From contig MGGJ01000002.1 of the NCBI GenBank assembly GCA_001792345.1, positions 1-47,243 of the forward strand: a DNA stretch of 47,243 nt, in the 5' to 3' direction. Position numbers and translations under genes: made by a program. Within the stretch, counting starts at the first letter, position 1; each line of letters begins with the position of its first letter. A model generated the notes under the pieces. That model was not told the DNA's origin and did no database searches. It worked only from the letters and a program-made list of their open reading frames with translations. This document shows positions 27,262 to 42,224 of the stretch, in pieces. This stretch comes from Candidatus Woesebacteria bacterium RIFCSPHIGHO2_01_FULL_39_32. GTDB taxonomy: Bacteria; Patescibacteriota; Microgenomatia; UBA8517.

Positions 27262-27930
27262 TTAAGCAAAAATGTCCTTCTCTTTTACGGGTGTTTCAGG
27301 ATTATAGACATTATAGAAAAGTTCAATTAGCTCCTCTGTTGTTAATTGTTTCAGTTTAATGGTTAGTCGACCCGCCTGTCTAATTAAGTGGTCTCGTTTG
27401 GGGAAAAGAGAAATTTTTGCTTTACGGATTACATATGATTTTGGATAAGGCAAGGGAGCTATCTTTTTTGAGGTTCTAAAAGTTGAAGCAATTGACTTTG
27501 CAACACCAAGTTCATAGGGAGTGAAAAGAATGACGATATAAAATCGTTTACTTAATACATTCTTCTTTTTAATAGCATCTTGGATAAACTTTTTGTAGTC
27601 TTCCATCAACCCAAGTAATTTTTGATTCTTGATTCTCTTTCCGGCTTCTACTAGAAAATCCATATAGCTACTTATATCTTTCTTTTGGCTTCGTACTACA
27701 ATTTGAACAGCAAAGTTAAAAGAATTAAGTAGTCCTGCGTAACTTGCAATTACAGCTCGCTGTTCCGTTTCGGATAACAGCCCGAAATTTAGAGACGTTG
27801 ATTCCATGACAAGTGCTGCACCACCGTTTTCGTAAATTACAACCCCATCGACAATGTCGGCAATAGGTAGTAGGTCCTGAGTGGACGAGCTTAATGCTTT
27901 ATCCGGCGTACTTAGTAAAGGTATTCTCAT
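27262..27930 (-). CDS. Conserved T4SS-associated protein (TraC/VirB4 N-terminal-like)
   Basis: STQDLLPIADIVDGVV, NFGLLSETEQ, LNSFNFAVQIVVRS, ELFYNVYNP; between PrgI-like gene and virB4. Confidence 0.65.
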   Translation of the reverse strand: MRIPLLSTPDKALSSSTQDLLPIADIVDGVVIYENGGAALVMESTSLNFGLLSETEQRAVIASYAGLLNSFNFAVQIVVRSQKKDISSYMDFLVEAGKRIKNQKLLGLMEDYKKFIQDAIKKKNVLSKRFYIVILFTPYELGVAKSIASTFRTSKKIAPLPYPKSYVIRKAKISLFPKRDHLIRQAGRLTIKLKQLTTEELIELFYNVYNPETPVKEKDIFA

Positions 27931-27934
27931 TTTA

Positions 27935-28912
27935 TTAAGATATTAAGTTTTCAGATTGTTTTTTCGACCATATTGCGATTGGCGGAATAATTTCACCTTT
28001 TGCTTCAAGAGTGATGGGTTCAAAAGTGTAGCCTTCTTTTTCTGTGATTATTTCATACATTCCGTTAAGTAGCGGTGTAACAATCATAAAGTGTCCCAGT
28101 TTATTGCTCTTCAACGCCCTAACCGGCCTACCTTCCGAATCTCTTATTTCCAAAATTGCTGCTTCGATTATTCCGCCACTTGGGTCCACAACCTGACCTA
28201 CTATTACGTTCGGTTTTGTAGGAGGACTGGGGGGAGCAGCTTCCTGAGAAAATTGAGCAACCTGTACTCCTTCAATTTTTTTACCCACAGAAGGAGTTAG
28301 CGTAGATATATTTGTCGGCTGAGGTGTTGCCTCAGGCGTTTCATTTATTCTAGCTTTTTCCTCTTGTGATACGGTAATTATTGGAGACGCAGGGACTTTC
28401 TCTTCCTGTGAAGGAGGTTCTGGGAGGGTTACTGATTGGGGAGAAATCCCTTGGACGCTTGCTAACTGTTGAGTAACGCTTGAGAGAAATGCACTTTCCT
28501 TTTCCTCGAGGTTTTTCAGCTCAGGTGCAGGAGTCATAACAGGAGTGCTTTCGCGCGGAATAGATATTTGAGTTTCAGTAGTGCCGGGTTCAGGCGAAAA
28601 AAAATTTTGTTTCTTTTGGCCCTTTCGCCACACATAAAGGGTTGGGGAATATATCGATTTAATGAATAGAAAGATCCACGTTGAGAGCGGACGATCTTGA
28701 AGTGGGAAAAAAGCAAAGGCGATCCCTGTTAGAAAAGAAAGTATGATAAGTGGCCACTTTACATAACTTGCTGCATTACTGGTGTAAACCAAAAGTGCCA
28801 CAAGTGCTCCACCCGCCACTTGGAAAAACTGCTTGATCGTCATGTCTCCCACAAGCCTGAATTGGTAGGCAGAGATCTGTTGTGGTATCGGATGCTGTTC
28901 TTCGAGTTCCAT
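27935..28912 (-). CDS. PrgI-family membrane protein with C-terminal beta-sandwich domain
   Basis: QHPIPQQISAYQFRLVGDMTIKQF, two TM, DRPLSTW; Pro-rich linker; VGQVVDPSG...GMYEIITEKEGYTF. Confidence 0.75.
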   Translation of the reverse strand: MELEEQHPIPQQISAYQFRLVGDMTIKQFFQVAGGALVALLVYTSNAASYVKWPLIILSFLTGIAFAFFPLQDRPLSTWIFLFIKSIYSPTLYVWRKGQKKQNFFSPEPGTTETQISIPRESTPVMTPAPELKNLEEKESAFLSSVTQQLASVQGISPQSVTLPEPPSQEEKVPASPIITVSQEEKARINETPEATPQPTNISTLTPSVGKKIEGVQVAQFSQEAAPPSPPTKPNVIVGQVVDPSGGIIEAAILEIRDSEGRPVRALKSNKLGHFMIVTPLLNGMYEIITEKEGYTFEPITLEAKGEIIPPIAIWSKKQSENLIS

Positions 28913-28917
28913 AATTA

Positions 28918-28942
28918 GAGTAAATGAGCGTGAGAGTATAAG
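28918..28942 (+). repeat. Octamer array, left flank of four-helix-bundle pseudogene
   Basis: GAGTAAAT GAGCGTGA GAGTATAA G. Confidence 0.75.
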
Positions 28943-28950
28943 TTAACTTT

Positions 28951-29327
28951 TTAACTTCTCAAGCTCTTCTGATAACTGTACAAAAGCTTTTTAGCTTCTA
29001 AAACAAGCGAACTTATTTCTTCGAATTTCATTTTATCAAAATATCCTAGTTCATATGAAACCTTAAAATATATTCTAGTTCATTAATTGATCCCTTACTG
29101 ATATCTAAGAAACGTATTAACTCTTTTCTTGAGGTCTTTGAGTATCCTTTAACTATATTAGCAGTTATAGAAATTGCAGCACGTCGCATTTGTGGTGCTA
29201 AAACAAACAGCTCTTCTTTAGGATACCCTTTTGTTAACTTGTATGTGGCTAATACCAATCCAAAAGACTTTTGATATACAATTAATTTTTCGTAACCTTG
29301 TTTCTGGTAGGCAGTTTTAATACTCAC
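28951..29327 (-). pseudogene. Frameshifted four-helix-bundle protein (23S rRNA-IVP/Avd-like)
   Basis: YEKLIVYQKS, YPKEELFVLAPQMRRAAISITANIVKG, RFLDISKGSINELE; 1-bp loss near 29070, other frame continues YFKVSYELGYFD...KKLLYSYQKSLRS* to 28951. Confidence 0.85.
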
Positions 29328-29355
29328 GCACTTATACCCTTCTACTCTTATACTC
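29324..29355 (-). repeat. Octamer array, right flank, inverted relative to the left
   Basis: Minus strand GAGTATAA GAGTAGAA GGGTATAA GTGCGTGA. Confidence 0.75.
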
Positions 29356-29444
29356 TATATCGTGAACCCTTTTTTTCAAGACTATAGCTTTTTCACAGGG
29401 AGAGTTGTGTTAAAAGGTGCGTTGGGGTGGTAAAATATGGGTAT

Positions 29445-31706
29445 ATGGTAGAACAAGGATCAACGGAAAAGGCCGACAAAGAAGAAAGAGCTCCATTGCA
29501 GCCGGATGTAAAATCCGATAAGGGTGCTACTGAATCTGATGAAACCCAAAATTCTTCTAAAAAAAGTAAAGAGGACGAACTGGTTGAAGCAGTAAGAGAG
29601 ATTACTTCTGCAGTAAATCAGGCAAATAAGGACATTGTGGCGTCCGTTAATAATCTAGCAGGCCAACTTGAAGCTTACGCTAAAGCAATAGGCCAGCAAA
29701 TAGCCCTACTCGAGAAAAGAAAAGATACGGCATTGGTTGACGCAACGATTGATGCAATGGTCAAAAAATTAGAGCCGGTTATTAGAGAATTTACTGAGGC
29801 ACTAGATGGTGTAAAAGACGCTTCAGATCGGGAATTTAGACAACTTAAATATAACGAAGATTTGATGAAGGCTTATTTAGAACAAATCGAGCAGGCACAA
29901 AATATTCCAGACGAACTTAAAAACCCCACCCTTGACAGGATGATCGGACGTTTATCCGATGAGGATAAAGCGGAGTATGAAGCTACTGTAAGAGAAGAAG
30001 TAAGAAATGGTAGAACAGTGGAAATCCATCAGGTACGCGGTAAGGAATGGAATGAGACAAATGAAGTTTACCAAAACATGGTTGAGGATTGGTTTGAAGA
30101 AAGAATTAGGGAAATGGAATCAGTCGAGCAATCATTCGAAGAACAACCCGATGTTTATCGATATTTATCTCTTTATGCAAACAACTATGTTCTTAGGAAA
30201 GATACGAAACCGTTTGGGGAAAGAATTAGAGACAACCTTGAGACAAGAAGAATTAGACATAGAGTCGTTAGAGTTTGGAATATGGCGGGACCTGAAGGAA
30301 TTTTAAGTGAAGCTTCAAGAATTACCTTCACTACTTGGAGAAAGTTATTTAAGACCGAAAATATTGGAACTTATGTGTTAGATAGACGTGGTAATAGAGT
30401 AAAAGATCCGAAAACGGGTGAAGATAGAAAAGAAAACCACATTGAAAACGAACTTCAAAATTACGAGAGAATGGGAAGAATTTTGAGGGGGAAAAGAGAT
30501 AGGTTAAGACAAATTCAAAGGTCGCCTGGGGGTGGAGATAAGACAGAAATTAAGGCCTTGGAAAAAGAGATAAAGATTAAAGAGCAGTATATTTTTGACT
30601 ATTACAGTCTGGGGGGTTCGATAGAGGATACAAATCCAGACTTTTTTGTAAAGCTGGGTGGTGAGATCGAAAAACCCAAAGACGAAGATTTCAGAAAATA
30701 TCAGATAGAGCACCCAAATCCTGATTTAAGTAGCAAAAAAGCCAGAGAGCATAGAGATGCAATTTGGGCCAAGAGATATGCCGGAGGACTTTGGAGTATG
30801 ACTTTGAGAGCCGCCACCCACGACATTCAACTAAATGGTAGTGGTGATTTTTTTGCAGCAAGAATAATGAATTTCAGCGACCGTCTGACTAGAAATAACC
30901 TAATGAGAGATTCAAGCGAAATATGGGATCCGACTAGGGTGGATGACCCCTTTGATTTGGGGTATATGGATGTAATGACTTCGCTCTTGGGGAATGTTGA
31001 GAACCTAGATAGTTTGGGAGTTTCAGGGAATCAGAAAGTGGTGTCTGGAGAAAAAGTTGTCGGCATAAAAAGCTTAGAAAATTTTAAGTGGGGCAGTAGC
31101 GAGGTTTGGGATAAAGCGTTAATGAAAGAGGATATTAGACCACCAGAGGGGATGTATGTTATTAGGATGACGTATTTTAACGATGCCGACAATACTCGAA
31201 AGAGAATGTGGGCTGCAGATAGCTATTTCCATAAACCAACGCTTGAAAATTTAATCAATATGGAAGGTGTATTTGCACATTCAGGAACTGGAAAAAGAGA
31301 CGCGATAATAAAAGATAGTTCCGGCGAAAGGGTAATTGGAACCGTAAAAGATATTACTCCTATCGAAGTAAAGTGGATGGAGCTTCTTGATAGGTCGTTA
31401 GAATACTTAAAAACCAAACAAGGTGCGGAATGGATGAGCGATCCTACAACTGGTTATCCTCGTCTTGCTATGACTCGTGAGTGGATCAATACTGCACGTA
31501 GAAATGGAATGATTGGTGAAGAGACAAAAAATATTTTATTAAGAAAATATTTTGGAACAAGGAATACCTTTCTGCTTAATAGGATATCGGAAATTAACGT
31601 GTGGGGGGCTGATTTAATACATAATGCAGGAGGTATGACTTGGAGCGCCTTCATGGAATATATTAAAAGAATGTTTAAATATATGTTTTCAGATGAAGTT
31701 AGATAG
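29445..31706 (+). CDS. Large charged, probably helical hypothetical protein
   Basis: 759-aa ORF; likely ATG at 29445, 8 nt after TAAAAT; no family recognised. Confidence 0.75.
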   Translation: MVEQGSTEKADKEERAPLQPDVKSDKGATESDETQNSSKKSKEDELVEAVREITSAVNQANKDIVASVNNLAGQLEAYAKAIGQQIALLEKRKDTALVDATIDAMVKKLEPVIREFTEALDGVKDASDREFRQLKYNEDLMKAYLEQIEQAQNIPDELKNPTLDRMIGRLSDEDKAEYEATVREEVRNGRTVEIHQVRGKEWNETNEVYQNMVEDWFEERIREMESVEQSFEEQPDVYRYLSLYANNYVLRKDTKPFGERIRDNLETRRIRHRVVRVWNMAGPEGILSEASRITFTTWRKLFKTENIGTYVLDRRGNRVKDPKTGEDRKENHIENELQNYERMGRILRGKRDRLRQIQRSPGGGDKTEIKALEKEIKIKEQYIFDYYSLGGSIEDTNPDFFVKLGGEIEKPKDEDFRKYQIEHPNPDLSSKKAREHRDAIWAKRYAGGLWSMTLRAATHDIQLNGSGDFFAARIMNFSDRLTRNNLMRDSSEIWDPTRVDDPFDLGYMDVMTSLLGNVENLDSLGVSGNQKVVSGEKVVGIKSLENFKWGSSEVWDKALMKEDIRPPEGMYVIRMTYFNDADNTRKRMWAADSYFHKPTLENLINMEGVFAHSGTGKRDAIIKDSSGERVIGTVKDITPIEVKWMELLDRSLEYLKTKQGAEWMSDPTTGYPRLAMTREWINTARRNGMIGEETKNILLRKYFGTRNTFLLNRISEINVWGADLIHNAGGMTWSAFMEYIKRMFKYMFSDEVR

Positions 31707-38443: not shown

Positions 38444-38474
38444 ACTTAATTCTAGTACAATATTATGTTATAAC

Positions 38475-38508
38475 TCAAATTTTAAATCTCAAAACAATAT
38501 CTTAAAAC
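38475..38508 (+). repeat. Heptamer array, left flank of the intact four-helix-bundle gene
   Basis: TCAAATT TTAAATC TCAAAAC AATATC TTAAAAC. Confidence 0.65.
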
Positions 38509-38511
38509 TTT

Positions 38512-38916
38512 TTAACTTCTTTTACCTTTCAAAGTTAGAAGGCTTGCAGCAATCATCTTTCCGATTTCTTTTACCTCTGTGATGAGAGGTTCTGATTTTC
38601 CCGCTTCCACTAATTTGGAATCTTTAAGAAGCATCAACCAATAAATGGTTTCGTTGGCGCTTTTGAGAGCAATCTCATAAAATTTTATGAAATCTCTCCT
38701 CGAGCTAGAGGATTTGGCTTCGACCAAATTTGCTCCGATAGAAGTTGAACTACGTAACAGTTGATCTCCTATTATCCAGTAGGCTCTTTTTTGAGGAAAA
38801 TCTTTAACTAGATCAATTATAGTAAGCGAAAACTTATAAGCTCGGTATTTTACGTTAGATTTAAGATTTGCGTTGTGGTTTTGAGTTTTGACATATGACA
38901 TTTGAGTTTGATTCAC
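38512..38916 (-). CDS. Four-helix-bundle protein (23S rRNA-IVP/Avd-like)
   Basis: RAYKFSL, DQLLRSSTSIGANLVEA, SRRDFIKFYEIALKSANETIYWL, EVKEIGKMI. Confidence 0.9.
   Translation of the reverse strand: MNQTQMSYVKTQNHNANLKSNVKYRAYKFSLTIIDLVKDFPQKRAYWIIGDQLLRSSTSIGANLVEAKSSSSRRDFIKFYEIALKSANETIYWLMLLKDSKLVEAGKSEPLITEVKEIGKMIAASLLTLKGKRS
38857..38912 (-). repeat. Heptamer array at the gene's 5' end, inverted relative to the left flank
   Basis: Minus strand TCAAAC TCAAATG TCATATG TCAAAAC TCAAAAC CACAACG CAAATC TTAAATC. Confidence 0.75.
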
Positions 38917-39300: not shown

Positions 39301-40419
39301 CTATTTTAAACCTGGTATTTTGAGTATTTCAACCCCGATTAAGTTAAGAATGTACGCTCCAAATAGAAGTAAGACTACGCCCATCACGGCTGCCGTGAGA
39401 AGCTCTTTTCCTGCTTGAAGTCTTTGTGGGTTACCCCCAGAAGTAATAATCATAAACCCTGCATATATAATAAGTATTAATGCAATACCACCAACTATTC
39501 CAATTCCCCAAAGTATAACAAATCTTGCAAATGCATTCTGTTCAGTAATAGGAATACATCCAATTGCAGTATAAATTTCTGCTGTACAGTCACCTATGCC
39601 TGGAGTATCGCAAGGCTTTCCATTTTTGTCACAGAAAATTTTAATAGGCGAGGCTTTGATTGATTTGCAGGCTGCTTCACAAAGAGCGAGATCTCCATAA
39701 GTGCCTGTCCCTGATTCATTACAGCCCACACCAGGAATACACGCATATTTTAATGGTACGCCCCCACTACAAGCCTGATCGCAAGATGTATAGTCGGCGT
39801 ACTCTGGGGGCGCGCATCCAAAATTTGTGCTAGTTGCGTAACACGGCAAACACAATCCTGCCGTCTCACAAAAGTACCCGGTAACAGCGGCCGGTGGCTC
39901 TTGGCATTTTAAATTAGCGCCTCCACCCGCATAATTATTACACACAAGTCCACTACAACAACCATCTTGTGTTCCTGGTGGACCAGTACAAGGATCATCT
40001 AAATTGCCACAGGATGCGGGAGTTGTGCAAGTTAAATTCCCCGCAACGTTGTTGCATACAAATCCATCACAACAGCTTCCTTGTGTGCCGACGGTTCCTG
40101 TGCAAGTATCTCCTTCGTTGTCACATACAGGAGCTTCTAAGCAGTTCCCAGCCGGTTGGCCGGCCATACACGGGAAAGTGAGGGTGTTACATAAATTGGG
40201 GTCTGGAAAATAACCAGCCAGATTACAACTCGATAAGTTAAAATCTACTCTACAACCAGCGCTTGGGTTAGCGTCATCCACGGGGTAACAATATGTACAA
40301 GGCAATCCTGTTACGGGGTCACAGTCGGTAACTTGAGCAAATACTGGACTAGAGACAAAAGAAGAAGAAAGTAAATAAAAAGTAATTATGGAGAAGAGGA
40401 TTAATAGAAACTTTCTCAT
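39301..40419 (-). CDS. Cys-rich extracellular protein fused to a C-terminal pilin domain
   Basis: Signal peptide; Cys-rich repeats; IYTAIGCIP; AGFMIITSGGNPQRLQAGKELLTAAVMG. Confidence 0.8.
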   Translation of the reverse strand: MRKFLLILFSIITFYLLSSSFVSSPVFAQVTDCDPVTGLPCTYCYPVDDANPSAGCRVDFNLSSCNLAGYFPDPNLCNTLTFPCMAGQPAGNCLEAPVCDNEGDTCTGTVGTQGSCCDGFVCNNVAGNLTCTTPASCGNLDDPCTGPPGTQDGCCSGLVCNNYAGGGANLKCQEPPAAVTGYFCETAGLCLPCYATSTNFGCAPPEYADYTSCDQACSGGVPLKYACIPGVGCNESGTGTYGDLALCEAACKSIKASPIKIFCDKNGKPCDTPGIGDCTAEIYTAIGCIPITEQNAFARFVILWGIGIVGGIALILIIYAGFMIITSGGNPQRLQAGKELLTAAVMGVVLLLFGAYILNLIGVEILKIPGLK

Positions 40420-40463: not shown

Positions 40464-42224
40464 ATGAAAAGCGCAATGAATAGCGAAAAGCAGCGAGAAA
40501 CAAGTAAGGGGTTATTTTTAAAAGGAAAAATATTTATTTCTTTGTTTGTTTCCCTTTTCTTACTTCTTACTTCTTACTTCTTACTTCTTAAATCTATTTC
40601 CGCTGAGCCTGACTGCGACAACCCTAATCCGGGTGACATAGACTTTTGTTTACAAAGAATTGAAGCTGAATTAAGCGCCCTAAAACCGGCCCAAGAATAT
40701 AACAAAAAAGAACTTGCTGATTTACGAACACAGATTTCCAGCTTGGAAAAAAGGATTTCCGGGATTTCAAACCAATTGGGAGTACTTGAAGGGGACATTG
40801 GAAAAAGAGAAGAGGATCTTGCCTACGCCCAGGAAATTTTTGTTGAGAAAACCAAAAACCACTACAGATTCTTGCGCTTTTATGATCCGCTTTTACCCTT
40901 TTTATCTACAGAGAACGCATCAAGTGCATTTAGAGAAATAATATTTAGACAAAAAGCCGCAAACGAAGACATTAAAACGATGGAGGGGTATGGAGCTGAT
41001 TTACTTGCCCTTAAAACCGACAAAGAAAATCTCGAAAAAAGTAAGACCAGCCTTTCCTCTATAAAGAGTCAGGTTGGTCAAAGAGCGCAATTTTTAGCCG
41101 GTGAGGTTGAGAAAACCGAGAAGTATCTTTCCGCCCTTTCTTCAAAACAAGAAGAACTTATTGCTCTAAAAGCCGGAGGATTTCAAACTTCAGTTGGAGA
41201 TACTCCCGCAACAGCAGAACCATGCTCCGGTCCTCCCGGATCTTCGAATTATTGCGATCCCGGTTTTAGACCTGCCTTTGCTGGGTTTTCCTTTGGTGCT
41301 CCTCATAGAACAGGCTTAAGTCAATACGGTGCATATGGAAGAAGTAAACAGGGACAGTCTGCTGAAGCTATTTTAGGAGCATATTATCAGGGAGCTGAAC
41401 TCAATAAATCCTTTCCCATTCCTGATACGATTGGAGTATCAGGCTACGGGAGAATTCCTTTTGAGGATAATTACTTACTGGGAATTTATGAGGTTCCTGA
41501 GTCCTGGGGTAATAATGGTGGTTTTGAGGCTTTGAAAGCGCAGGCTGTTGCGGCCCGCTCGTATGCCTTAGCAGTTACCGGCAACGGCGCCGGAACTATT
41601 TGTCCTACGGAATCCTGCCAGGTTTATAAACCCCAACTAAAAAGCGGTAAATGGGCAGAGGCGGTGCGTGCAACACGTGGTTGGGTAATGGTAAAGGGAG
41701 GAACGGCTGCAACAACTTATTATGCCTCAACCTCCGGTGGATATACGATTTCTCAGTGGGGTTGGTCAGGTATAAAAGACACTAACGGTGATTGGCCAAG
41801 TGGCGCCTATGAGAAATTATCTGGATCTCCTTGGTTTTATAAAGCATGGTTTAGAACTAGAGGGGGGGCGACCTGTGGCAAGGCGAACCCCTGGTTAAAT
41901 AATCAGGAAATGGCAGATATATTAAATGCTTGGCATGTTTTATATAAAGGTGGAGGAGATTCGGGAAGAGTCTCACCTATCGACACGAATTGTTGGGGAG
42001 GAAATCCGTATTCGATTAGTGAACTCGCAGGAATGGGAGGATATACCAGCGTTTCAAGTGTAGCCGTTACTTATTCTAACGCGGGGAATACGCAAACTGT
42101 TACATTTGGTACAAATAAAGGTAGTGTTAATCTGTCCGGCGAGGAATTTAAAAAAGCATTTAACCTGCGTGCGCCTGGATACATCGGGTTAAAAAGTAGT
42201 TTATTCAACATCGAGAAGCTGTAA
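40464..42224 (+). CDS. SpoIID/LytB-family protein with N-terminal coiled coil
   Basis: HRTGLSQYGA, YLLGIYEVPESW, EALKAQAVAARSYA, ESCQVY, YYASTSGG. Confidence 0.85.
   Translation: MKSAMNSEKQRETSKGLFLKGKIFISLFVSLFLLLTSYFLLLKSISAEPDCDNPNPGDIDFCLQRIEAELSALKPAQEYNKKELADLRTQISSLEKRISGISNQLGVLEGDIGKREEDLAYAQEIFVEKTKNHYRFLRFYDPLLPFLSTENASSAFREIIFRQKAANEDIKTMEGYGADLLALKTDKENLEKSKTSLSSIKSQVGQRAQFLAGEVEKTEKYLSALSSKQEELIALKAGGFQTSVGDTPATAEPCSGPPGSSNYCDPGFRPAFAGFSFGAPHRTGLSQYGAYGRSKQGQSAEAILGAYYQGAELNKSFPIPDTIGVSGYGRIPFEDNYLLGIYEVPESWGNNGGFEALKAQAVAARSYALAVTGNGAGTICPTESCQVYKPQLKSGKWAEAVRATRGWVMVKGGTAATTYYASTSGGYTISQWGWSGIKDTNGDWPSGAYEKLSGSPWFYKAWFRTRGGATCGKANPWLNNQEMADILNAWHVLYKGGGDSGRVSPIDTNCWGGNPYSISELAGMGGYTSVSSVAVTYSNAGNTQTVTFGTNKGSVNLSGEEFKKAFNLRAPGYIGLKSSLFNIEKL
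40557..40591 (+). repeat. Heptamer tandem repeat in the signal/TM segment
   Basis: (TTCTTAC)x4 + TTCTTAA, encoding LLLTSYFLLL. Confidence 0.9.

Follow-up and report, generated by a model that had tools for sequence, protein, structure and literature searches.

The window analyzed here, the whole 47,243-nucleotide (nt) stretch from the genome of Candidatus Woesebacteria bacterium RIFCSPHIGHO2_01_FULL_39_32 (denoted G000; 1.17 Mb, 38% GC, 13 contigs), contains a small gene of the PF05635/TIGR02436 four-helix-bundle family that is enclosed by two inverted arrays of 8-nt units and is located directly upstream of a type-IV-secretion-like operon that starts with a PrgI-like gene. Our analysis confirmed that this feature is a real, hairpin-flanked gene cassette, in which the repeat units, the frameshift and the replacement of a conserved glutamate reported in the original prediction are all present. 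The cassette takes up the whole of the 5' untranslated region (UTR) between a conserved promoter and the ATG codon of the PrgI-like gene, and we view it as a copy, now in decay, of an element of the intervening-sequence type, in a variant that is widespread and apparently has not been described before. All coordinates are positions in the window, and the cassette and the operon are both encoded on the minus strand. The features of the locus are as follows.

29388-29396, minus strand: conserved motif GTGAAAAAG upstream of the operon promoter, delineated by comparison of the PrgI loci of relatives
29352-29379, minus strand: predicted promoter, with -35 box TTGAAA (29379-29374), a 16-nt spacer and -10 box TAGAGT (29357-29352); 9 of 12 in a consensus scan
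29324-29355, minus strand: upstream (5') arm of four 8-nt units, with the GTG start codon of the cassette gene (29327-29325) within the last unit
28951-29327, minus strand: four-helix-bundle gene (PF05635/TIGR02436) in two frames, 29327-29046 (93 amino acids (aa), helices 1-3) and ~29075-28951 (last helix)
29148-29150, minus strand: AAA (Lys) codon replacing the near-invariant Glu, in the context NIVKGY (motif R...S...N..E)
29061-29070, minus strand: site of the 1-nt frameshift, TATTTTAAGG, from three-frame translation
28935-28962, minus strand: second promoter-like site, TTGAGA-16-TATACT, 10 of 12 in a consensus scan, spanning the gene end and the downstream arm
28918-28941, minus strand: downstream (3') arm, which reads as three 8-nt units on the plus strand, ending 5 nt before the PrgI-like ATG (28912)
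27935-28912, minus strand: PrgI-like gene, the first of the type-IV-secretion-like operon (Pfam PrgI, E 1.1e-05, 26.3 bits)

Arms, promoter and gene at the PrgI-like locus

The units of both arrays were located position by position, exactly where they had been predicted: the downstream arm, in the plus-strand reading, consists of GAGTAAAT (28918-28925), GAGCGTGA (28926-28933) and GAGTATAA (28934-28941), and the upstream arm, on the minus strand, of GAGTATAA (29355-29348), GAGTAGAA (29347-29340), GGGTATAA (29339-29332) and GTGCGTGA (29331-29324). The variant unit G(A/T)GCGTGA, said to occur on both sides, is indeed found in both arms. A repeat search delimited the arms as 28916-28943 and 29330-29357 (28 nt, 75% complementary), including a perfect 10-mer, AGAGTATAAG/CTTATACTCT, and 3 of the 11 exact GAGTAKAA matches in the window are confined to the 440 nt of the cassette. 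The signal is modest: among 4000 random genome windows with matching geometry, 3.9% reach the inverted-repeat score of this copy (21) and 4.5% reach its periodicity. Taken alone, the arms of this copy are weak evidence, and the case rests on the layout of the family as a whole.

The GTGAAAAAG-type motif lies at a constant distance from the -35 box in most of the relatives' PrgI loci, with or without a cassette, and GTGAAAA is present in 15 of the 19 relatives' PrgI loci listed, so that a conserved, putative promoter and a motif that may be a regulator site precede the operon. The entire block (29352-29396; loci L010-L038) is conserved across genera in the form GTGAAAAAG..TTGAA..TTCAC..TAnnnT. 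The -10 box extends into the outermost unit of the upstream arm, and hence the outer end of this arm is probably not transcribed at this locus. The second promoter-like site, a consensus match within the 3' end of the cassette, could drive the PrgI-like gene; the region contains 3 promoter-like sites compared to 2.1 +/- 1.7 in shuffled sequences. No intrinsic terminator was detected in 28700-29600, and an Rfam scan of 28500-29800 identified no ribosomal RNA (rRNA) and nothing else of relevance, the sole match being a chance hit to a long non-coding RNA (E 0.4). Thus, the cassette is not an insertion into an rRNA gene but is located between a promoter and a protein-coding gene. The match of this downstream gene to PrgI is just below the Pfam cut-off of 27 bits; the operon also encodes a TraG/VirB4-like ATPase and many pilin paralogs. 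In relatives G004, G012, G015, G017, G026, G033, G035, G038, G041 and G047, the PrgI-like protein aligns in two pieces around residues 145-190, which form a variable Pro/Ser/Thr/Gln-rich linker.

The cassette gene is readily recognized by PF05635 (94.2 bits against a cut-off of 33.8, with profile positions 1-78 of 106 in frame) and by TIGR02436 (84.5 bits against a cut-off of 24), and a profile search of the whole genome yields a match at 29010-29291 that includes internal stops. In three-frame translation, frame 0 ends with GSINELEYILRFHMN at the stop codon 29048-29046, and the last helix, KVSYELGYFDKMKFEEISSLVLEAKKLLYSYQKSLRS, is read in another frame up to the TAA stop at 28953-28951, so that the four helices are not encoded in a single frame. 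The 1-nt frameshift responsible, which had been noted in the original prediction, lies within TATTTTAAGG, and the same letters are found, with 0 differences and 0 gaps, in contigs from two other sequencing runs (X5 record 14, 28877-29595, from a sample that is not marked as a possible source, and X9 records 18 and 19), which makes an error of a single assembly unlikely. The contigs of 4 DNA runs included no joint that skips the cassette; a lone X5 joint from 29043 to 29182, with a shorter side of only 24 letters, was taken to come from a paralog of another organism.

The predicted Lys in place of the Glu of NIxEG is present as well, in NIVKGY. Among the 109 homologs examined, 105 bear the motif, with E in 102 of these and K in none. 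The family motif, given in the relevant section of PMC3936711 as GxxRxxxSxxxNxxE, is therefore incomplete in this copy: R, S and N are retained, and E is replaced by K. Judging from its sequence, the gene belongs to the family by ancestry, although its product is probably non-functional. A similarity between GTGCG and the 5' end of a group II intron was considered and dropped, given the length of ~0.44 kb, the unrelated open reading frame (ORF) and the lack of an intron match in Rfam.

Periodic inverted arms across the family and at the PrgI site

The original prediction depended on other family members having inverted flanks with a period of 7 or 8, and this is what we observed. All 8 PF05635 loci of G000 possess their own, mutually different periodic inverted flanks, with null fractions relative to 4000 random windows of 0 to 0.039 for all 8 loci and of 0 to 0.0075 for the 7 loci other than the one described here. 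Outside this genome, we analyzed a sample of 80 loci of subfamily 1 (NIVEGY) from many phyla, 78 of them usable, with 926 non-cognate arm pairs as the null. The cognate arms exceed the 95th percentile of the non-cognate pairs in 60 of the 78 loci and the 99th percentile in 48; a period of 7 fits best in 49 loci and one of 8 in 21 (7 or 8 in 70/78); and the median arm score is 28 for cognate pairs compared to 15 for non-cognate pairs and 15 in the same-strand comparison. Control flanks taken at least 0.5 kb from these genes are flat, with no periodicity. In the corresponding sample of subfamily 2 (RSSTSIGAN; 80 loci, 74 usable), the period is 7 in 65 of the 74 loci, and 33 loci exceed the non-cognate 95th percentile, a lower number that is explained by the A-rich, low-complexity arms of this subfamily.

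The arms have a median size of 30 nt, that is, ~4 units. The 5' arm is rich in purines, with G>C in 70 of 77 subfamily 1 loci and A>T in 44 of 53 subfamily 2 loci; given that the element is an inverted repeat, this bias holds on both strands, and the 5' arm is most simply read as a purine-rich leader before the gene. The junctions are tight: a median of 41 nt separates the stop codon from the start of the next co-oriented gene, the neighbor downstream is co-oriented in 62 of 75 loci, and the arms abut or overlap the start codon, the stop codon and the start of the next gene. In five further genomes, each copy again comes with its own unit, and genomes of the Candidate Phyla Radiation (CPR) encode up to 16 paralogs, each with a unit of its own. 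The layout was seen in at least Patescibacteria, Bacteroidota, Planctomycetota, Cyanobacteria and Xanthomonadales-like genomes, and is thus shown to be a property of the family in many phyla.

Two further observations concern individual copies. The window itself contains a second, intact cassette (38472-38916, minus strand) between two pilin paralogs of the type IV secretion system; its gene (38512-38916) belongs to the RSSTSIGAN subfamily, its arms consist of CTCAAAA/TTTTGAG heptamers (38867-38909 and 38472-38495), and the upstream array is translated as an N-terminal tail. The genome of a Novipirellula (G061; loci L124, L135 and L139) carries six cassettes within ~25 kb, three of which directly abut tRNA-like sequences, recognized by eye from GGGAGTCGAACCC-type T arms.

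The history of the site upstream of the PrgI-like gene was reconstructed from the corresponding loci of 29 relatives, all from other genera and with PrgI 41-60% identical; 28 were compared, L029 being left out for lack of upstream DNA. A cassette is present in 11 of these 28 loci and belongs to either of two subfamilies, each with its own arm type. The A-type (7/28) has arms of GAGTAnAA octamers or, in L011 and L014, of GGTAAAG heptamers, and where intact, its protein is 57-68% identical to that of our copy, which exceeds the conservation of PrgI itself; the B-type (4/28) is 36-43% identical to our copy and has GCACAAAG/GCATAG arms. The remaining loci include 3 with a gene-less hairpin of arm units (for example, GGGTAAAGCATAAAAGC-TTCG-CTTTTGATGCTCTTTTACC in L037), 1 with only a remnant of the upstream arm, and 13 that are empty, with just the promoter and a UTR of 25-35 nt. 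Hence the gene is not fixed across the lineage, and empty alleles of the kind anticipated in the original prediction exist upstream of the PrgI-like gene.

On a tree of PrgI and P222, these states are scattered, with 13 changes needed; the branches with good support require no fewer than 5 changes for A and 4 for B, and one clade with 100/100 support mixes A, B and hairpin states. Broken cassettes make up 4 of the 12 at this site (our copy, L013, L022 and L031). An additional case is L232, a metagenome contig of a close relative (PrgI 95% identical over 101 residues), which keeps the promoter, 2.5 upstream units and the last ~165 nt of the gene, having lost ~210 nt of the gene and exactly 16 nt, or two units, of the downstream arm. 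In L011 and L014, both arms have changed in concert, from the 8-nt GAGTAAAA / TTTTACTC to the 7-nt GGTAAAG / CTTTACC. These comparisons show that, at the PrgI site, the gene and its arms are inherited, replaced and lost together, that the arms outlive the gene as gene-less hairpins, and that alterations of the arms involve entire units and affect the two sides in concert. From the scattered states, the hairpins and the losses in L232, it follows that gene and arms travel together and have been repeatedly replaced or lost at one spot.

No clear target-site duplication was found at the PrgI loci; inverted arms are present. The sequence ACTGCC.ATGGAACAA occurs at the start of the L026 cassette gene and, in empty loci, at that of PrgI, as would be expected after a duplication but equally after a deletion. 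L237 has a B-type cassette at the PrgI site with a 10-unit downstream array of CTATGTTC-type units and a further array of such units upstream of the promoter. L239 is identical to our copy for ~125 nt and then continues into unrelated, GC-rich sequence; this probable chimeric contig was not used.

The decay of our copy, proposed in the original prediction, is thus supported by the frameshift, the Glu to Lys replacement, the weakest arms among the 8 copies of the genome, and the deletions in L232. A programmed frameshift was also considered, since L022 is broken near the start of the last helix as well; considering that the break sites differ and that L232 carries an outright deletion, decay is the simpler reading.

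Dispersed copies of the arm units

Tandem arrays of at least 3 copies are dominated in G000 by period 7, with 117 arrays compared to 26, 22 and 20 for periods 6, 8 and 9, respectively; of these 117, only 40 are classed as mostly intergenic when ORFs are called crudely. A PF05635 gene is nearby for only 7 of the 138 arrays with period 7 or 8. To compare the units of these arrays with the cassette arms, we used sets of 8 GC-matched foreign cassettes as the control and word lengths of 9 to 12, 7-mers having been uninformative (67 versus 63 +/- 8). Among 131 arrays, 37 have a 10-mer in common with the arms of the 8 cassettes of G000 itself, compared to 14.1 +/- 5.2 with foreign cassettes, and 0 of 1000 sets reached 37. 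When only arrays more than 2 kb from any cassette were counted, the numbers were 30 of 119 versus 13.4 +/- 4.9 for 10-mers (reached by 5 of 2000 sets) and 17 versus 3.5 +/- 2.7 for 12-mers (reached by 1 of 2000 sets).

The arm type of the PrgI-site cassette recurs at three other places of G000, namely as hairpins at C9:14818 and C13:147709 and as a solo copy of the 3' arm at C6:52480-52514. The first of these (L396, G000:C9:14818-14910) is a gene-less GAGTAAAA/TTTCACTC hairpin that lies in frame in the head domain of a CCA-adding enzyme / poly(A) polymerase, at the site of a loop that varies in length from 7 to 34 residues among 12 relatives. The solo copy (L398) is identical to the downstream arm in 25 of 30 letters by eye, has no partner within 120 nt, and is located within or next to a RecF/SMC_N-like ORF. 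Further inverted pairs of arrays in the genome (C4:45977, C9:59046, C5:17322, C4:72619, C5:1158 and C2:40359) contain no four-helix-bundle-like ORF by eye. One such case in the window is a (TTCTTAC)x4.9 array at 40557-40590 with a weak inverted partner at 40359-40385, with no small ORF between the two; the pair spans a divergent region and the start of a plus-strand gene at 40464.

Among the relatives, (GAGYWNRA)x2 is matched 29 times in G019 and 31 times in G028, with 0 matches for the reversed control; as read from the list of matches, these correspond to ~15 and ~17 places, respectively, with 4 close convergent pairs per genome. Most are not close to a PF05635 gene; in G019, the sole pair that encloses such a gene is the one at the PrgI site. 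A search for (GKTRAAG)x2 showed that the GGTAAAG unit of G034 is not dispersed.

A single gene alongside many repeats was found in a Xanthomonas-like genome (G066), which has one PF05635 gene, located between accB- and accC-like genes and flanked by GGGAATC arms, and 172 (GGGAATC)x3 sites. The same arrangement of a single PF05635 gene between accB/accC-like genes, with GGGAATC/GGGATTC arms, was observed at L371 (in G066), L374, L376 and L378, all Xanthomonadales-like, where the downstream ORF starts with MLDKVVIANRGEIALRILRAC. Among 20 genomes picked for a (GGGAATC)x3 array, 18 hold a PF05635 gene somewhere; these genomes were chosen blind to the gene and from different genera, but 6 are Xanthomonadales-like and they are not phylogenetically independent. 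The corresponding rates are 38/201 in a class-wide sample that includes the unpublished genome G200 and 1/14 in control genomes, and none of the other 200 class-wide genomes holds a GGGAATC array. Conversely, none of 80 loci seeded on (GGGAATC)x3 had a PF05635 gene within 700 nt or less, in an array-seeded search that recovered 29/30 and 7/8 known loci. The association between array and gene thus runs one way: it is observed at the level of the genome and not next to the arrays.

Intervening sequences, repeat partnerships and other explanations

The best explanation of the locus, which we consider probable if only just, is that it contains a small gene cassette of the intervening sequence (IVS) type, self-contained but in this copy dying, whose arms would pair in the transcript to form a stem open to RNase III. 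This explanation is based on the published anatomy of IVSs, the fold of the sense strand and the presence of an RNase III gene. The purine-rich 5' arm and the pyrimidine-rich 3' arm would pair in the transcript as an imperfect stem of ~28 bp with the ORF in the loop; RNase III would cut this stem, as in the IVSs of rRNA; and the cassette RNA would thereby be released from the transcript of the host, so that insertion between operon genes might do little harm. The encoded protein would probably recognize the periodic arms. In the present copy, the gene is dead, leaving a UTR structure before the secretion operon; the remnant would act only in this capacity, perhaps together with the promoter-like site in the 3' arm.

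In the predicted fold of the sense strand, the arms are paired in both the minimum free energy and the centroid structures, with four helices totaling ~28 bp, and the z-score is -1.98 compared to -0.35 for the antisense strand. The termini of the cassette are thus complementary, with the ORF in the loop of the stem; an internal loop of this predicted stem contains the PrgI start codon, and PrgI codons 2-3 are paired with 29369-29364. An RNase III gene is present in the genome (G000:C13:32945-33328, 131.5 bits), and by analogy with rRNA this enzyme may cut the stem. In this respect, the closest counterparts are the ORF-containing IVSs of 23S rRNA (helix 45 in Coxiella burnetii, and Leptospira), which share with the cassette the protein family encoded in the loop, the complementary termini of ~28 bp, a size of ~0.43-0.44 kb, the existence of ORF-less forms and a sporadic distribution. 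According to the pertinent passages of PMC4990558, the Coxiella IVS consists of 428 nt, with a 28-bp stem that RNase III cleaves in the middle in vitro and a loop that contains an S23p ORF, and rRNA IVSs are selfish, with origin and mobility unknown; for CPR bacteria, IVP ORFs in rRNA insertions are mentioned in part of PMC11270868. Unlike these elements, the present cassette lies in the 5' UTR of a protein-coding operon, has arms built of 7-8-nt units, and has copies of its units dispersed in the genome.

The protein itself can be compared with Avd of diversity-generating retroelements (DGRs), which has a homologous fold and is described, in the sections consulted of bioRxiv 10.1101/2023.10.23.563531, as a pentameric, positively charged barrel "similar to S23 ribosomal proteins" that binds RNA; the same sections report that, in DGR RNA, distal segments up- and downstream of the template pair. 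The structures of family members in the PDB (2gsc and 2rld) likewise contain 5 chains per entry. Unlike Avd, the cassette protein scores only 22.7 bits with NF033474, against a cut-off of 80, and no reverse transcriptase family was found among the 17 neighboring proteins scanned.

Several results weigh against pairing and cutting at the RNA level. A look for RNA runs containing positions 27900-30400 of the window returned none. The two strands do not differ in their tolerance of G:U pairs: the mismatches in 67 loci comprise 101 sense-G:U and 84 antisense-G:U (p 0.24), and the duplex energies are equal (-46.8 kcal/mol for sense and -47.5 kcal/mol for antisense), so that the complementarity could equally serve at the DNA level. 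Given the overlap with the -10 box, the outer 7-bp helix and the GGGUUC/GAACUC helix may be absent from the RNA, in which case ~15 bp of the modeled stem would remain; this would be a short substrate for RNase III. Inside a single arm family, the best partner is not the cognate one, and there is no fine-scale cognate preference, in a comparison that leaves out the upstream-arm row of L033 and the downstream-arm row of L022; the arm of our copy pairs better with that of L013 (-38.1 kcal/mol) than with its own partner (-29.0 kcal/mol). Both neighbors are co-oriented with the cassette in 52 of 71 loci, only slightly above the ordinary order of genes. Finally, the stem explains neither the periodicity of 7-8 nt nor the dispersed gene-less copies, and only 18 of the 138 arrays of period 7 or 8 in G000 have an inverted partner within 1 kb. 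The proposal of an IVS-like element in mRNA, as originally put forward, is therefore partly supported: it stands with respect to the ORF in the loop of complementary termini and a size like that of the Coxiella IVS, and arm pairing in the mRNA is predicted by the fold of the sense strand but had a null result in the G:U test.

RAYT genes are flanked by REPs, and a similar partnership of gene and repeat, operating on DNA, is the main rival to the IVS-type explanation: the protein would bind, and perhaps spread or maintain, dispersed arrays that match its arms. We regard this as unlikely. In some of the genomes, as in the REPIN/RAYT systems (concept in the relevant parts of PMC3337134 and PMC3116915), a gene lies between inverted copies of a short repeat that recurs in the genome, often as inverted pairs, and one gene may coexist with many repeats, as in G066 with its 172 sites. 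The recurrence of flank units holds for GAGTAnAA in G019 and G028, where the excess of (GAGYWNRA)x2 includes convergent pairs, and for GGGAATC in G066; it is weak for the decayed copy described here, with its arm type at three other places of G000, and does not hold for GGTAAAG in G034. The heptamer excess in G000 (117 arrays), the preferential match of these arrays to the genome's own cassettes (37/131) and the frequency of the gene in array genomes (18/20 versus 38/201) point in the same direction, as does the literature on heptanucleotide repeats. These include GGGAATC in Xanthomonas, GGGGA(C/T)T in Nostoc, TAACTGA in Beggiatoaceae and the cyanobacterial short tandemly repeated repetitive (STRR) sequences, and PMC4692102 and PMC4679880 describe them as tandem 7-nt units, with about four preferred, that form convergent pairs and are intergenic, within 50 bp of ORF ends and between co-oriented genes, all features that the cassette arrays share; unlike them, the cassette arrays form a matched inverted pair around one gene. 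For Xanthomonas, 70 convergent pairs are given in PMC4692102, which makes no mention of the gene family; "S23", "four-helix" and "23S" have 0 occurrences in the text of either paper. On the other side, the RAYTs are enzymes of a transposase family (IS200/IS605-like), and the cassette protein is a 120-aa four-helix bundle that lacks any known catalytic fold, be it of a nuclease or a recombinase, matching only PF05635, TIGR02436 and, weakly, Avd; the repeats are tandem units of 7-8 nt rather than the single palindrome of REPINs. The gene was not found at any of the 80 array-seeded loci and is near only 7 of the 138 arrays in G000, the own-genome excess comes mainly from two cassettes (per-cassette counts 6, 1, 3, 3, 5, 11, 3 and 1, with 1 for the dead copy and 3-11 for the short-type copies that are intact), and the 20 array genomes are not independent. 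Genome-wide slippage with preferred units could match arms and arrays without any protein, which is compatible with the foreign-arm control; since the pattern may equally reflect such a bias, partnership on DNA is kept as the main rival. In a broader form, which we consider similarly doubtful, PF05635 proteins would be the partners of bacterial heptanucleotide repeats in general, with one paralog per unit and a pentamer that reads ~4-5 units, and the IVSs of rRNA would be merely the earliest special case to be noticed of a REPIN/RAYT-like system that relies on a nucleic-acid-binding protein without enzymatic activity. It is no more probable, in our estimate, that the gene travels between inverted copies of the array, with gene-less copies spreading to intergenic junctions and tolerant coding loops.

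Two further explanations seem to account for less. The arms could be operators of the protein itself, which would autoregulate the translation of its own or the downstream gene, the element being neither mobile nor processed. This would agree with ~4 units per arm and 5 chains per crystal entry, with the position of the arms at the start and stop codons and at the start of the next gene, and with the purine-rich 5' arm, as translation leaders tend to be; it leaves unexplained the complementarity of the arms, the replacement at the same site by another subfamily with its own arms, and the gene-less hairpins and dispersed copies, and it is at odds with the persistence of arms after the death of the gene (L013, L031, L232 and our copy), so that we deem it rather improbable. 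The least probable explanation denies any function: the flanks would be by-products of slippage or quasipalindrome correction in AT-rich intergenic DNA, and the gene a frequent passenger. Heptamer arrays do abound throughout the genome, for the most part without relation to the gene, and the arms, which are altered in steps of entire units, carry no strand-specific signal, but the much greater complementarity of cognate arms (28 versus 15 and 15), the lack of periodicity in the far flanks of the same loci and the persistence of the layout across many phyla all speak against this possibility.

Of the elements brought together here, the protein family and its structures, its kinship to Avd, the IVSs of rRNA, the heptamer repeats and stray members in cas loci were known. 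In the open-access main texts of PMC and bioRxiv, we found no description of PF05635 genes outside rRNA as cassettes between inverted arrays of 7-8-nt units, and no link between PF05635 genes and dispersed heptamers. The four-helix-bundle "IVS protein" family is large, and we know of no function for it; to our knowledge, the heptamer repeats of bacteria are likewise a long-noted oddity without explanation. If the family and the heptamers belong together, both questions can be addressed with simple binding and RNA-processing assays. In that case, IVSs would also be not a curiosity of rRNA but one face of a widespread cassette found in operons, UTRs, tRNA clusters and cas loci. The cassettes also bear on annotation: the 18 family members in cas loci, for which a possible CRISPR-associated function is discussed in the relevant section of PMC3936711, may simply be such cassette insertions.

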